Origin: Gammaproteobacteria bacterium
GTDB lineage: Bacteria; Pseudomonadota; Gammaproteobacteria; UBA4575
Direction of reading: 5' to 3'
DNA length: 33,508 nucleotides
NCBI GenBank assembly: GCA_027297825.1
Contig: JAPUHH010000034.1
Location: 1-33,508 of the forward strand
Both the position numbers and the translations under genes were made by a program. The notes below the pieces were generated by a model. The model searched no databases. It saw only the letters and a list, made by a program, of their open reading frames with translations, and was not told where the DNA came from. This document shows, piece by piece, positions 1 through 18,866 of the stretch (the first letter of the stretch is position 1; each line of letters starts with the position of its first letter).

Positions 1-216
1 TGCGTGTATTTGTGTGCACGCAATGTACACAACAAATGACCAGTCTTTTATCAAAATACTTTCAAATATTGTTAAATAATTTTCATTAAAAATAATTGTA
101 AAAATCTGTAAGGTTTTTACATGTTGTGCGACTAACCAATAAGTTTGTAAATTTTTAAAAACGAAATACTACAAACGAAACTAAACAAAAATGTTATTTA
201 ATTTGGAGATTTAATC

Positions 217-3176: not shown

Positions 3177-3865
3177 GGAAATTTACTTTGTCTATTGCGC
3201 ATTACGTCATATGCCGTTACGCCATAATATAGAGGTTTGCGTTTTTTGAGGGTAGGAATGATTTGAATGGTGGCCAGGAATATAAATATCGCGGCCCAGC
3301 ACTCGCAACATTCCTCAATCACTCGCCCAATATGTGTATGATTCAAGCCGGATTTGTCACAAAGCTGCGAGATAGCCAGCACTACAAGCCATAAAGCCAA
3401 AGCCACAGCCCAGGGCTCCAAGTCGAGAATTTCTTGCCAAATGGTGCGCGTGTATCTGGCTAATAAATACAATATAAAAACTGCAAGTATTAAAAATATC
3501 AGCCCGGCTATTATTTTTTGCCACATTGGCACTGAAGCCATGGTGTAAAATTTACCACGTGTGACATGTTCTACCGTTAGTAAGCGATGTAAATCAGCTT
3601 CGCGAAGAAAATAGATGAGCACTACATAAGCAGTTGCGATCGCAGTTAATTTTGAAGAGGCTATATGCGGATTTACAATTAAGGTTAATAACACCACAAA
3701 TGCGCAGCCTAAGAAGGTCAGTGTTATGATTGACACAAAGCCGGCATCTGCAATACCACTGCCACTGATAGTGGGCGGCAGCAAATAGGTATGCACACCA
3801 ATATAGATTGGCAGTAGGGCTAGAAAAAGAAAATTAATTAAATTGGCAGTTCGGCCATTCGACAT
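3155..3865 (-). CDS. hypothetical polytopic membrane protein (236 aa)
   Basis: Long ORF with about 6-7 hydrophobic segments and a basic, proline-rich tail. No family recognised. Its 3' end overlaps the thiS 3' end by 22 nt (convergent). Confidence 0.55.
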   Translation of the reverse strand: MSNGRTANLINFLFLALLPIYIGVHTYLLPPTISGSGIADAGFVSIITLTFLGCAFVVLLTLIVNPHIASSKLTAIATAYVVLIYFLREADLHRLLTVEHVTRGKFYTMASVPMWQKIIAGLIFLILAVFILYLLARYTRTIWQEILDLEPWAVALALWLVVLAISQLCDKSGLNHTHIGRVIEECCECWAAIFIFLATIQIIPTLKKRKPLYYGVTAYDVMRNRQSKFPQPPPMA

Positions 3866-15542: not shown

Positions 15543-15619
15543 GGTGATGGCTGCATGTAGAGCAGCGAGAGTATAGCTAGGCACTTGACTGGCGGCTAGC
15601 ACATGAAGAGATAATTCAG

Positions 15620-15922
15620 ATTTTTAGGATAGGAATGCTGCGTTACGACGTCCTTGTCTCGCAGCTCTCATCCCTAAGACGTTGGTGAAAAGCTCTCCTA
15701 ATGCTGAGCTATTTACATGCTTCCCTGCTTGCCGTGGCATCCTTGCCACTAACAAATTCCATTCAACGCAGCTTGATTTGTAGAGCCGACATCCTTGTCG
15801 TGAAGTATTCCACCCATGTGAATGTGAGAAAATCCTTCTTAATCCACTTCACAAATCAAGCTCACTACCTGCCTATTGTGATAAGGCTTCCATTTTCTTA
15901 TCACTATGAATCCGTTCAGTCC
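15620..15922 (-). ncRNA. GGA-repeat array: candidate Csr/Rsm-type sponge RNA (or CsrA-binding 3' UTR / glyQS leader)
   Basis: 13 GGA motifs on the minus strand in about 275 nt. Perfect loop presentations are cgac-AAGGAT-gtcg (15787-15800), gtggc-AAGGAT-gccac (15734-15749), gaa-CGGA-ttc (15908-15917) and gac-AAGGAC-gtc (15647-15658) nested in gctgcg/cgcagc (15637-15665). ACAAGGAUGU equals the CsrA SELEX core. No ORF of 60 aa or more on this strand. The 3' end is not defined. A weak hairpin plus UUUU lies at 15687-15710. Confidence 0.4.
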
Positions 15923-16051
15923 TTAGGTGCGTTTGTTGGTGCGACACAGTTTTTCCTTAACCGTATGTCGATAAGCCCAAGCCAGCGCTGCCATACTTGC
16001 GGCGATCCATACAACATATAATGTTGTTAATACATCTGTGTTACCGCTCAT
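15923..16051 (-). CDS. 42-aa predicted single-pass membrane mini-protein (MSGNTDVLTTLYVVWIAASMAALAWAYRHTVKEKLCRTNKRT)
   Basis: Hand-translated and below the ORF-track cutoff. Strong AAGGAGG 5 nt upstream of the ATG. One hydrophobic helix is followed by a basic tail, consistent with the positive-inside rule. No homologue recognised. It could instead be the non-coding 5' part of the GGA-rich RNA. Confidence 0.35.
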   Translation of the reverse strand: MSGNTDVLTTLYVVWIAASMAALAWAYRHTVKEKLCRTNKRT

Positions 16052-16120
16052 TTTGACCTCCTTGTTATGGTCTATGCCTGTCGTAGGCATAAATTTAATG
16101 TCCCTATTACCAGTGTATAG

Positions 16121-16136
16121 AGCAAAGGCTGTGCCA
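16121..16136 (-). promoter_or_regulatory. sigma-54 (RpoN) promoter, -24/-12 type
   Basis: The minus strand reads cTGGCACAGCCTTTGCT. This has the exact spacing and matches YTGGCACGrNNNTTGCW at all conserved positions except one. It lies about 70 nt upstream of the mini-ORF ATG. Confidence 0.55.
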
Positions 16137-16520
16137 GGTTTGTTGGCGGTTACGGCTTGTTAGCTAACCTACTGACAGGCCGGACAATACTGATTTACGC
16201 TAGATAAATACCCACGCTCAAAGACAGTCAATAGGACCAAATTTGTCCCCAGAAATTGACTTTTGGTGACCAATTTCGGCATGGCTTTACTGGATGGTTC
16301 TGGAGTAATAGATAAGTAGTTTTTACAGTGGACCCGGTAAGCCATTTCCATCTGTTTGGGCAAATCTGAAAGTCAGGCTGTGAGATCCATCGCCGCCAGC
16401 ATGTAAAAGCTATCACCATCCATTTTAATCCATGCAGTGGCTAGCAATTTGATTGAGATATGAAAATGTCCATGGCGAATAAAAAGTGTAAGTGTTCATG
16501 CGGCGTGACGAAGCTTACGA

Positions 16521-16556
16521 GCACTATTCTGGTGCTTGATGGCACTATGGTGGTGC
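16521..16556. promoter_or_regulatory. two tandem NtrC-type enhancer sites (GCAC-N7-GTGC)
   Basis: GCACtattctgGTGC (16521-16535) and GCACtatggtgGTGC (16542-16556) fit the TGCACC-N5-GGTGCA NtrC dyad. They are centred about 100-120 bp upstream of the glnA sigma-54 promoter. Confidence 0.5.
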
Positions 16557-16643
16557 AAGTATAGGTAACAGTGCCGCTACCTATCATGAAAAAGCTGCGT
16601 ATAATGCCGCACGAGCACTCAATTGAGTGCGCCAGATCGGTAC

Positions 16644-16659
16644 TGGCACATATTGTGCT
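16644..16659 (+). promoter_or_regulatory. sigma-54 promoter of glnA (glnAp2-like)
   Basis: TGGCACatattgTGCT has correct GG-N10-GC spacing and lies about 80 nt upstream of the glnA ATG. A perfect TATAAT at 16600-16605 may be a sigma-70 glnAp1 -10 box. Confidence 0.6.
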
Positions 16660-16740
16660 TTATGCGCCAGTGAGTGAACGCGATTAGCAATTGATCACGA
16701 CCATAAGAATAACATTCGAGTTGAAGCTAAGGAGAAACCC

Positions 16741-18150
16741 ATGTCCGCGAATGATGTGCTCAAGACAATCAATGATGACGAAGTTAAATTCGTTGATTTC
16801 CGATTTACCGATACCCGAGGCAAAGAGCACCATGTCTCCGTGCCGGCCCACACTATTAATGAAGAAGTCTTTCAAAGTGGCAAGATGTTTGATGGCTCAT
16901 CGATCGCCGGCTGGAAAGGTATCAATGAGTCCGACATGATTTTAATGCCAGATCCTGCTACTGCAGTGATCGATCCATTTTTTAGTGACTCTACCATGAT
17001 TTTGCGTTGCGATATCCTCGAACCTTCTACCATGGAGGGCTATGGCCGCGACCCACGCTCGGTCGGTAAACGTGCCGAAGCTTATCTGCGTTCTACGGGA
17101 ATAGCCGATACCGCATATTTTGGTCCTGAGCCTGAGTTTTTTATCTTTGATGATGTCAAATGGGGCAATGACATGGCCGGCGCATTTTATCAAACTGATT
17201 CAGACGAATCGGCATGGAACTCCGCAAAAAGTTTTGAAGATGGCAACATTGGTCATCGCCCCGGTGTTAAGGGCGGATATTTTCCAGTGCCACCTGTTGA
17301 TTCTTTACAGGATTTGCGTTCAGCAATGTGCTTGGTGCTTGAAGAAATGGGCGTGCCTGTTGAAGTGCATCACCATGAAGTGGGCACTGCCGGACAGTGT
17401 GAGATTGGTACACGTTTTAGCACGTTAACCACACGTGGTGACTGGAACCAAATTTTAAAATACGTAGTGCTTAATATGGCAGATAACTATAATAAGACCG
17501 CGACATTTATGCCCAAACCTATTGTGGGTGATAACGGTAGTGGCATGCACGTGCATATGTCTTTAGTTAGAGAGGGTGAAAACTTATTTAATGGCGACTT
17601 GTACGGCAATCTTTCACAAACTGCGCTCTACTATATTGGCGGAATTATTAAGCACGCACGTGCGATCAACGCCTTTTCTAATGCCAGCACCAATAGCTAT
17701 AAGCGTTTAGTGCCTGGCTTTGAAGCACCTGTAATGTTGGCGTATTCTGCACGTAATCGTTCGGCCTCGATTCGTATTCCGTATGAATCTAATGCCAAAG
17801 CTAGAAGAATTGAAGTGCGTTTTGGTGACAATACCGGTAACCCTTACCTTACTTTTGCAGCCATAATGATGGCGGGTCTTGACGGCATTCAAAACCAAAT
17901 TGATCCAGGTCCACCCAACGATAAAGATTTGTATGACCTACCTCCAGAAGAAGAAGCCAATATCCCAACAGTGTGTTCTTCACTAAATCAGGCATTGGAA
18001 GCTCTTGATAACGATCGTGGCTTCCTAAAAGCAGGCGGAGTTTTCACCGATGACTGTATTAATGCCTATATTGAACTGAAAATGGAAGAAGTGACTGCAC
18101 TGCGTCAGGCTACCCATCCGATTGAGTTTGAAATGTATTACAGCTGTTAA
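16741..18150 (+). CDS. glnA: glutamine synthetase, type I
   Basis: 469 aa. [20 protein letters not shown] and the adenylylation-site region [12 protein letters not shown] are classic GlnA signatures. AAGGAG Shine-Dalgarno upstream. Confidence 0.97.
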
Positions 18151-18305: not shown

Positions 18306-18866
18306 ATGCGTGTGAATTTATTAATGTTAGTTGTATTAGCGATTTTCGCTAGCCATGCACAGGCGCGCATTTATACTTGTGTGGATAAAGATGGCAGCAC
18401 TGTATATTCTGATATACCGCCTACGGATGCTTGTCCCAACGCAGAAGAAGTTAACATAGATGCACTTCCCGATTTAATTAGTACCAAGCCTGTAACGGTC
18501 CCAAATAACACATCACGAATTAACAGTCCCGAGCCAGAGGCTGTAGTTGGCGTGTACCAATCACTCGCAATAATCTCACCTGGGGCAGATGAAATTCTGC
18601 GCAATAATGAAGGCAAAGTACAGATTGCATTTCAAGTCTCGCCTGCTTTGAAAGCACGCAGTGGGCATCAATATGTAATTTTCCTTGGTGATAAAGAGGT
18701 ATATAAGGGTACACAGAGTAGTGTCGTGCTAGAAAATATTGATCGTGGCACACATGCGGTCAGCGCTACAGTTATTGCACGTAATGGCCGTATTATCATT
18801 AGTTCTGAATCTGTGAGGTTTACCTTGCATCGATTTTCTAGATTGCAAGGAAATGCATCTTCTTAA
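18306..18866 (+). CDS. DUF4124-like secreted protein
   Basis: 186 aa. Signal peptide MRVNLLMLVVLAIFASHAQA followed by RIYTCVDKDGSTVYSDIPP, the signature opening of DUF4124 proteins. Confidence 0.6.
   Translation: MRVNLLMLVVLAIFASHAQARIYTCVDKDGSTVYSDIPPTDACPNAEEVNIDALPDLISTKPVTVPNNTSRINSPEPEAVVGVYQSLAIISPGADEILRNNEGKVQIAFQVSPALKARSGHQYVIFLGDKEVYKGTQSSVVLENIDRGTHAVSATVIARNGRIIISSESVRFTLHRFSRLQGNASS

Follow-up and report, generated by a model that had tools for sequence, protein, structure and literature searches.

A GGA-Repeat RNA with a Sigma-54-Type Promoter and a Conserved Membrane Mini-ORF: A Candidate CsrA Sponge in Uncultured Gammaproteobacteria

In this work, we describe a predicted RNA gene of ~475-488 nt (length of the predicted transcript) located between glnA and glyQS in a Gammaproteobacteria bacterium of the UBA4575 lineage. 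The window, that is, the whole stretch of DNA analysed, comprises 33,508 nt of contig JAPUHH010000034.1 (assembly GCA_027297825.1). Based on sequence comparisons, we lean toward the view, with confidence a little above even, that this RNA is driven by sigma-54 together with an enhancer-binding protein, that it titrates CsrA, and that in this subclade it also codes for a membrane protein of 42 aa, with translation probably gated by CsrA. As global switches, Csr/Rsm systems control carbon metabolism, motility, biofilm formation and virulence. A fuller version of this proposal, namely that a Csr/Rsm sponge has been wired to sigma-54 through a dedicated enhancer-binding protein and not through GacA/UvrY, and that in one subclade it is also the mRNA of a 42-aa protein gated by the CsrA that it titrates, is put forward more tentatively, with a probability somewhat below even. 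The features of the RNA gene and of its upstream region are as follows (ORF, open reading frame):

~16110 to 15637, minus strand: predicted RNA gene, between glnA and glyQS, divergent from glnA
16265..16272, minus strand: upstream box 1, TGGTCACC (T[TG]GTCACC in the relatives), candidate site for an enhancer-binding protein
16235..16248, minus strand: upstream box 2, GGACAAATTTGGTC, near-palindrome GACAAA-T-TTnGTC
16165..16177, minus strand: IHF-like site, TGTCAGTAGGTTA (IHF consensus, WATCARNNNNTTR)
16136-16121, minus strand: sigma-54 (-24/-12) promoter TGGCAC-AGCCT-TTGCT (TGGCACAGCCTTTGCT), sole exact match in the window
16110, minus strand: predicted transcription start
16091-16073, minus strand: leader hairpin UAUGCCU-ACGAC-AGGCAUA, 7 bp, present in the predicted minimum free energy fold
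16063-16057, minus strand: Shine-Dalgarno sequence AAGGAGG, followed after 5 nt by the ATG at 16051
16051-15923, minus strand: mini-ORF of 42 aa (MSGNTDVLTTLYVVWIAASMAALAWAYRHTVKEKLCRTNKRT) with one transmembrane helix and a basic tail; TAA at 15925-15923
15637..15922, minus strand: GGA array with 13 GGA motifs, mostly A(N)GGA, starting right after the stop codon
15637..15665, minus strand: final conserved hairpin GCUGCG-AGACAAGGACGUCGUAA-CGCAGC (AGACAAGGACGUC after GCUGCG), probable 3' end region

In the mechanism that we propose, an enhancer-binding protein would bind T[TG]GTCACC and GACAAATTTnGTC, ~160 and 135 nt upstream of the start, and a DNA bend at the IHF-like site, at about -60, would bring it to the polymerase, with transcription starting from an enhancer-dependent sigma-54 promoter. 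The transcript would have two functions. It would be translated, as an mRNA, into a conserved single-pass membrane protein of 42 aa, and its leader, Shine-Dalgarno region and ~290-nt tail would together display 13-18 GGA motifs, most of them in hairpin loops or single-stranded linkers. Such a display corresponds to the recognition pattern of CsrA/RsmA, and the RNA would most likely titrate CsrA in the manner of CsrB/RsmZ, while translation of the mini-protein would probably be gated by free CsrA. The GGA RNA driven by sigma-54 would be the core element and the ORF an addition specific to one subclade.

Comparison Set

A genome scan with GlnA produced 80 loci, the closest of which (80-89% GlnA identity) belong to metagenome-assembled genomes of uncultured Gammaproteobacteria/Thiotrichales. 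The divergent arrangement of glyQ and glnA is widespread. In five loci (L001-L005), the intergenic region measures 1.0-1.27 kb, and on the glyQ strand TGGCA[CT]-N5-TTGC[TA] precedes a mini-ORF homologue. Four others (L007, L008, L010 and L012) have an intergenic region of ~0.8 kb, with the same promoter motif at the corresponding place and no ORF. The intergenic regions of L006, L009, L011 and L013 are short and the element is absent from them, as it is from all remaining loci of the 80. A metagenome scan with an alignment of the mini-protein added seven loci (L081-L087), in all of which the promoter lies 79-93 nt before the ATG. The comparison set is therefore made up of 17 loci, the window and 16 relatives: 13 of the ORF class (window, L001-L005 and L081-L087) and four without the ORF (L007, L008, L010 and L012). 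Complete metagenome-assembled genomes with the locus include OZ244982.1, WLWD01000004.1, CBDCTA010000022.1 and JANQOB010000018.1.

A Probable Sigma-54 Promoter with Fixed Upstream Elements

An earlier note on this DNA had proposed an RpoN -24/-12 consensus with correct spacing at 16136-16121 of the minus strand, and the comparison bears this out. TGGCAC-N5-TTGCW has a single zero-mismatch match in the 33.5-kb window. At least one match was also obtained in 8 of 100 shuffled windows, a modestly unlikely outcome, so that the motif by itself is only suggestive. The relatives are more informative: all 16 carry TGGCA[CT]-N5-TTGC[TA] on the same strand and at the same place. None of the 17 loci departs from TGGCA or TTGC, and the GG/GC spacing is kept, with a 5-nt spacer that varies freely (AGCCT, GGCCC, GTCCC, AACGC, AAGCA, ACCGA, GTACT and others). 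The full arrangement occurs in 12 loci besides the window, and the promoter with a GGA-hairpin RNA but no ORF in four more; this conservation places the promoter/ORF arrangement far above chance. The start at 16110, 12 nt past the C of the -12 GC, is predicted from the standard geometry of sigma-54 promoters. The host has a sigma-54 system, judging from an NtrC equivalog, NtrB and a glnAp2-type promoter, all within the window.

Upstream of the promoter, the best-conserved block is box 1. It starts exactly 136 nt upstream of the T of the -24 element in all loci of the ORF class (135 in L004), and at -158 to -161 in the four ORF-less loci, where it reads TTGTCA[AC]C. Box 2 (GACAAATTTnGTC) is fixed at -112 from the same T in 12 of the 13 ORF-class loci, and the two boxes together form ATTTGTC-N20-GACAAAT. 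The IHF-like core TCA[AG]-N4-TTA is kept at -41 to -44 in 16 of the 17 loci, the exception being the ORF-less L007; the IHF consensus WATCARNNNNTTR was taken from the literature (PMC3045617). Despite these fixed distances, the DNA between box 1, box 2 and the IHF-like site is poorly conserved. Enhancer-dependent promoters of sigma-54 are classically built in this way, from a -24/-12 element, an IHF-like site and upstream boxes, and we consider the present one very probably functional.

The opposite view, that the motif is not a working promoter and that the RNA comes from a sigma-70 or another promoter, or from processing, seems to us very improbable. The exact matches in shuffled windows are in its favor. 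It has to account, however, for a -24/-12 element retained around a free spacer in 17 loci and for a fixed upstream architecture, and no sigma-70-like promoter was found on the minus strand between 16140 and 15600.

The Mini-ORF and Its Translation Initiation Region

The 42-codon ORF, described in the earlier note as one hydrophobic helix with a basic tail, has an intact frame in all 13 loci that carry it (39-43 aa). A frame broken in close relatives with the nucleotides kept, the outcome that the note had named as contrary to coding, was looked for and not seen. Pairwise dN/dS values are 0.04-0.29, variable alignment columns over the 13 loci are distributed as 16/7/27 among codon positions 1/2/3, and 12 codons vary synonymously only. 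Judging from this codon-level conservation, the mini-ORF is a real gene under purifying selection. The invariant residues include T5, D6, V7, W15, A21-R28 (AALAWAYR), K32, K34 and C36. A profile search of 5.8 billion proteins recovered 31 clusters of 39-73 aa, all unnamed and 64-98% identical to the window protein, and no match was found in Pfam, NCBIfam or the PDB sequences. By the positive-inside rule, the mini-protein is probably single-pass with its N terminus out and its C terminus in. More speculatively, it may act like other small membrane proteins and modulate a sensor or a transporter in the membrane. A longer ORF of 55 aa, starting from an upstream ATG at 16090, was considered and rejected, for this ATG falls within the leader hairpin, is not conserved and lacks a Shine-Dalgarno sequence.

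The order of a leader hairpin followed by AAGGAGG-N5-AUG, also proposed earlier, was recovered at 16091-16073 and 16063-16057. Set beside those of L001-L004 and L083-L086, the hairpin is kept in position but not in sequence, with changes on both sides in four of its seven pairs, and its loop carries a GGA in most relatives (UGCUCAGGAUGAGCA). The block GGAGGTCA is invariant in the 13 ORF-class loci, where GGAGG precedes the AUG by 5-6 nt, a strong Shine-Dalgarno sequence with optimal spacing. The consensus fold of the relatives places its GGA in the loop of a short hairpin, UGAC-AUGGAG-GUCA. This pair of elements looks like a translation initiation region repressed by CsrA, and since hairpin and Shine-Dalgarno sequence resemble a pair of CsrA sites, translation of the mini-protein is probably gated by free CsrA.

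The GGA Array and the 3' End

The GGA array had been reported to follow the stop codon directly, and indeed the first motif comes immediately after it (TAAGGA). In the 301 nt past the stop there are 13 GGA, against 6.9 +/- 2.1 in mononucleotide shuffles, and the GGA density of the minus strand peaks at the array (13 per 300 nt vs. a mean of 2.45). The whole predicted transcript contains 17 GGA, of which 14 are A(N)GGA. Typical units of the array are GUGGCA-AGGA-UGCCAC and CGACA-AGGA-UGUCG.

The motifs are preferentially unpaired or placed in hairpin loops. Over the whole transcript of the window, GGA cores have a mean unpaired probability of 0.65, compared with 0.41 for all positions, and the same bias is found in 17 of 17 homologues (0.54-0.84 vs. 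0.36-0.42 overall). Folding nine close homologues into a consensus leaves 8-10 of the 9-12 GGA of the tail in unpaired columns, as in AGCA-AGGA-UGCU and GACA-AGGA-UGUC. The transcript is predicted to fold more stably than its shuffles (z = -3.0). The array can be aligned to those of L001-L005 (nhmmer, E = 1e-40 to 1e-83), and the stem of the final hairpin is invariant in 11 aligned sequences.

On the 3' side of the array, nine relatives have a canonical rho-independent terminator, and in L005 the last hairpin leads into a T-run. In the window, the RNA gene is bounded downstream by a -10-like element of the glyQ promoter, beyond which glyQ itself begins:

15570..15575, minus strand: TATACT, conserved -10-like element of the glyQ promoter, outside the RNA gene
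15542, minus strand: start of glyQ, with glyS next

The final hairpin, with AUUCCUAUCC after it, ends ~60 nt before the -10 element of glyQ (15600-15640 region). All loci of the ORF class keep a block, GCTATACTCTCGCTGC, that lies past the terminators and ahead of glyQ. The array was also considered as a leader of glyQS, a candidate that we rejected, as a terminator and a separate glyQ promoter stand in between in nine relatives.

Relatives without the ORF

In the four ORF-less loci, the sigma-54 promoter is followed directly by 184-278 nt of GGA hairpins with 6-10 GGA motifs, located at ~3250-3540 on the minus strand of each locus. These RNAs end in CAAGACA-AGGA-UGUCUUG. They seemed to share a peptide, 'MKSVKTR...', but its ATG is missing in L012 and abuts the GGA without spacing; the conservation is explained by the hairpins and the peptide was rejected. 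Their bodies could not be aligned by nhmmer to the RNA of the ORF class, and homology between the two classes would rest on position and promoter architecture only. Such sequence divergence is not unusual for Csr-type RNAs. The presence of the promoter and of a GGA RNA without an ORF in four relatives suggests that the GGA RNA is the common core and that the ORF is specific to one subclade.

These relatives bear on a different explanation, according to which the transcript is essentially the mRNA of a small membrane protein, with a GGA-rich leader and 3' untranslated region (UTR) that act in cis, on translation or stability, through CsrA or another factor, and not as a sponge in trans. Such a role would be in keeping with the purifying selection on the ORF and its strong ribosome-binding site, with a leader hairpin and Shine-Dalgarno GGA that resemble a repressed CsrA target, and with the lack of a match to any Rfam sponge family. 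Nevertheless, four relatives keep the promoter and the GGA-hairpin RNA without any ORF, at least 10 GGA sites lie past the stop, far beyond what control in cis would need, and the tail matches the ORF in conservation, with nhmmer E values down to 1e-83. We consider a purely cis-acting role unlikely, and clearly less probable than titration of CsrA in trans.

The Activator

The glnA gene and its neighbors lie on the other side of the intergenic region, and the control region of glnA (16520-16670, plus strand) is of the ordinary type and conserved in the relatives:

16741-18150, plus strand: glnA, with the DUF4124 gene, ntrB and the ntrC equivalog downstream
18306-18866, plus strand: gene of a DUF4124 protein, between glnA and ntrB
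16557-16541: NtrC box TGCACCACCATAGTGCC, part of the glnA control region
16536-16520: NtrC box AGCACCAGAATAGTGCT, part of the glnA control region
16600-16605, plus strand: glnAp1-like TATAAT, within GCTGCGTATAATGCCGC (16594-16610), in the glnA control region
16644-16659, plus strand: glnAp2-type sigma-54 promoter TGGCACATATTGTGCT, with a GTGC variant at -12

NtrC was regarded in the earlier note as the obvious input, and this part of its proposal fared less well. If NtrC acted through the shared glnA enhancer, the RNA would report nitrogen limitation to the Csr system. The RNA gene is always divergent from glnA, ntrBC is 3 kb away, and two canonical NtrC boxes are found within the same intergenic region. 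NtrC enhancers can also act over hundreds of base pairs, and small RNAs (sRNAs) dependent on NtrC and sigma-54 do exist (NrsZ).

However, the two boxes (TGCACC-N5-AGTGCY) are placed for glnAp2, ~120-140 nt upstream of that promoter (about -120 and -140 from its start). From the -24 element of the sRNA promoter they are 400-420 nt away in the window and 300-390 nt in the relatives, a variable distance. Within 260 nt of the sRNA promoter, no NtrC half-site was found in 16 of the 17 loci, and L008 has one TGCACC at -105 that is not conserved. The RNA gene has instead its own boxes at fixed distances, whose cores, GTCACC and GACAAA, differ from the NtrC pattern TGCACC-N5-GGTGCA. Control by NtrC, which would have to be long-range, finds no positive support in the sequence and appears unlikely to us, although it is the least unlikely of the alternatives that we considered.

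The patterns of other known enhancer-binding proteins were searched upstream of the promoter, that is, those of GlrR (TGTC-N10-GACA), CbrB, LuxO, FleQ-like proteins and NifA, and none was conserved; the CbrB box TGTTAC-N14-GTAACA is absent there. As the boxes fit neither NtrC nor any of these proteins, the activator is most likely an enhancer-binding protein other than NtrC. The GacA box TGTAAG-N6-CTTACA, allowing up to three mismatches, has no match in the glnA-glyQ intergenic region or in the second GGA region described at the end of this text.

Is the RNA a Member of the Csr/Rsm Antagonists?

Repeated A(N)GGA motifs in short hairpin loops, followed by a terminator, are the defining pattern of Csr/Rsm antagonists, and CsrA occurs widely among Gammaproteobacteria. 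New Csr sRNAs have been nominated on the operational criteria of numerous GGA motifs together with a promoter and a terminator (PMC11882849); by these criteria the RNA, with a canonical terminator in nine of its relatives, would be a nominee, the binding of CsrA itself being putative.

Several observations weigh against a CsrA sponge of this design. Rfam gave no match in the window at the gathering threshold, at the locus at E<=10, or in seven related loci at E<=0.1; in view of this and of the missing GacA box, the RNA is not assignable to CsrB, RsmY, RsmZ or related families. A tblastn search with E. coli CsrA and P. aeruginosa RsmA found no csrA in the window and the 80 loci. The GGA enrichment over composition-matched shuffles is only ~2-fold. 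Compensatory changes occur in just 6 of 77 pairs among nine homologues; this weak covariation is explained by the close homologues being too similar, and the case for the modeled structure comes mainly from thermodynamics and conservation rather than from covariation. Nhmmer profiles of the leader and array of the ORF class had no match to the ORF-less RNAs at E<=10, nor did they reveal a paralogue elsewhere in the window or the loci. The leader-hairpin loops of the window and L081 read ACGAC or AUGAC, without a GGA, which looks like the loss of one putative CsrA site in the window strain. Finally, in the window, L081 and L082 the final hairpin is followed only by AUUCCUAUCC, with no U-tract, so that the window has no convincing intrinsic terminator. 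Since window-type strains are without a terminator, read-through of the sigma-54 transcript into glyQS is possible in them.

The negative csrA search in these loci, the lack of an Rfam match and the weak covariation also count in favor of a different reading, in which the GGA hairpins would serve another RNA-binding protein, or pair with CU-rich or UCC targets such as ribosome-binding sites. Against such roles stands the repetition of A(N)GGA hairpin loops 10-18 times before a terminator, which is the Csr/Rsm pattern (criteria as in PMC11882849). The general occurrence of CsrA among Gammaproteobacteria points in the same direction, and we hold a target other than CsrA to be improbable.

Comparison with Known Systems

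The RNA resembles CsrB/CsrC and RsmX/RsmY/RsmZ in being intergenic, probably transcribed on its own and a few hundred nucleotides long, in its 13-18 GGA, the majority of the type A(N)GGA, which are presented by hairpin loops and linkers, in a terminal hairpin, or a terminator in nine relatives, and in a motif pattern that persists while the sequence diverges rapidly between clades. It differs from them in the lack of an Rfam match and of a GacA/UvrY box, in its sigma-54 promoter with an IHF-like site and upstream boxes where theirs are sigma-70 promoters, in its conserved, translatable 42-codon ORF, and in that its CsrA binding is putative.

To our knowledge, the well-studied Csr/Rsm sponge RNAs are always transcribed from sigma-70 promoters, mostly under regulators of the GacA/UvrY type. 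The earlier note had argued on this ground that a sponge dependent on sigma-54 would represent a different regulatory wiring, which agrees with the absence of a GacA box here. No report of a sigma-54-dependent Csr/Rsm sRNA was found in the literature searched, an absence that is not proof. For P. stutzeri and P. aeruginosa, RpoN has been reported to affect gacA/rsmZ negatively, and no RpoN box was found on the rsm genes (PMC8249394).

The known sRNAs that depend on sigma-54 include GlmY/GlmZ (GlrR and IHF), Qrr (LuxO), NrsZ (NtrC) and CrcZ (CbrB). CrcZ and CrcY of Pseudomonas are sigma-54/CbrB-dependent sRNAs that sequester Hfq/Crc. They share with the RNA described here the design of a protein-sponge sRNA with repeated single-stranded motifs and an enhancer-dependent sigma-54 promoter (papers on them include PMC4063720 and PMC8871633), but their motif is the A-rich CA motif of Hfq, whereas here it is the CsrA-type GGA. 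CrcZ, moreover, encodes no peptide, and its CbrB box has no counterpart here. GlmY/GlmZ of Enterobacteriaceae, controlled by sigma-54 with GlrR/QseF and IHF, are alike in their -24/-12 elements, their IHF sites (WATCARNNNNTTR) and their activator sites more than 100 bp upstream with TGTC/GACA half-sites (PMC3045617). In our case, though, there is no TGTC-N10-GACA; the half-sites are N20 apart, with an adjacent GACAAA-T-TTnGTC, and GlmY/GlmZ act through RapZ and base pairing, not through GGA arrays. NrsZ of P. aeruginosa is also a sigma-54-dependent sRNA beside nitrogen-regulation genes and is built of modular repeated hairpins (PMC4253122). It differs in being activated by NtrC and in acting by base pairing. 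The RNA described here has a proximal upstream element other than an NtrC site, and its repeated unit is a GGA hairpin.

With the dual-function RNAs SgrS/SgrT, Spot 42/SpfP, RNAIII/hld and SR1/SR1P, our RNA shares the combination of a small-protein ORF and a riboregulatory part on one transcript, although the known dual-function sRNAs act by base pairing. It has been reported that mRNAs can titrate CsrA, as in the case of the fimA 5' UTR and the flaA mRNA of C. jejuni (PMC8916003, PMC4894983, PMC13501541). In the literature searched, we found no dedicated sponge of the Csr type with a conserved small membrane protein encoded on it, which again is not proof of absence.

If our proposal is right, the all-or-none, signal-gated network of sigma-54 is open to the Csr system as well, a wiring of sRNAs known so far from GlmY, Qrr, NrsZ and the Hfq sponge CrcZ. 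A membrane mini-protein inside a sponge, behind a CsrA-like site, would represent a new type of dual-function RNA, and the mini-protein would be a built-in reporter of free CsrA. The promoter anatomy (two boxes, IHF-like site and -24/-12) could also guide searches for non-canonical Csr sRNAs in those uncultured lineages in which Rfam models fail, and it makes the hypothesis directly testable, including in a heterologous host.

A Second GGA-Dense Stretch

Another GGA-dense stretch is found at 451-650 of the plus strand, between ORFs at 217-453 and 647-964, with 13 GGA in 351-650 against a mean of 2.9 per 300 nt. The flanking ORFs encode 78 and 105 aa, have signal-peptide-like N termini and show no match in Pfam or NCBIfam. 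Upstream of the 78-aa ORF, at a distance of ~100 nt, there is an inverted repeat, TGTAAAAA-N9-TTTTTACA (98-122, plus strand; it contains TGTAAGGTTTTTACA). It is reminiscent of a GacA/UvrY-type box, but its spacing is wrong and it gives no match within three mismatches. In the stretch itself we found no terminator, sigma-54 site or GacA box, and it is not more stable than its shuffles (z = 0.22). It could be a CsrA-controlled intercistronic leader or a decoy embedded in an mRNA. The stretch holds two internal direct repeats, GTCACGGAGGAAA and GAACACGGACGTTCTCTAG, and it is nearly identical in a metagenome contig (L088) in which the downstream genes are different from those of the window.

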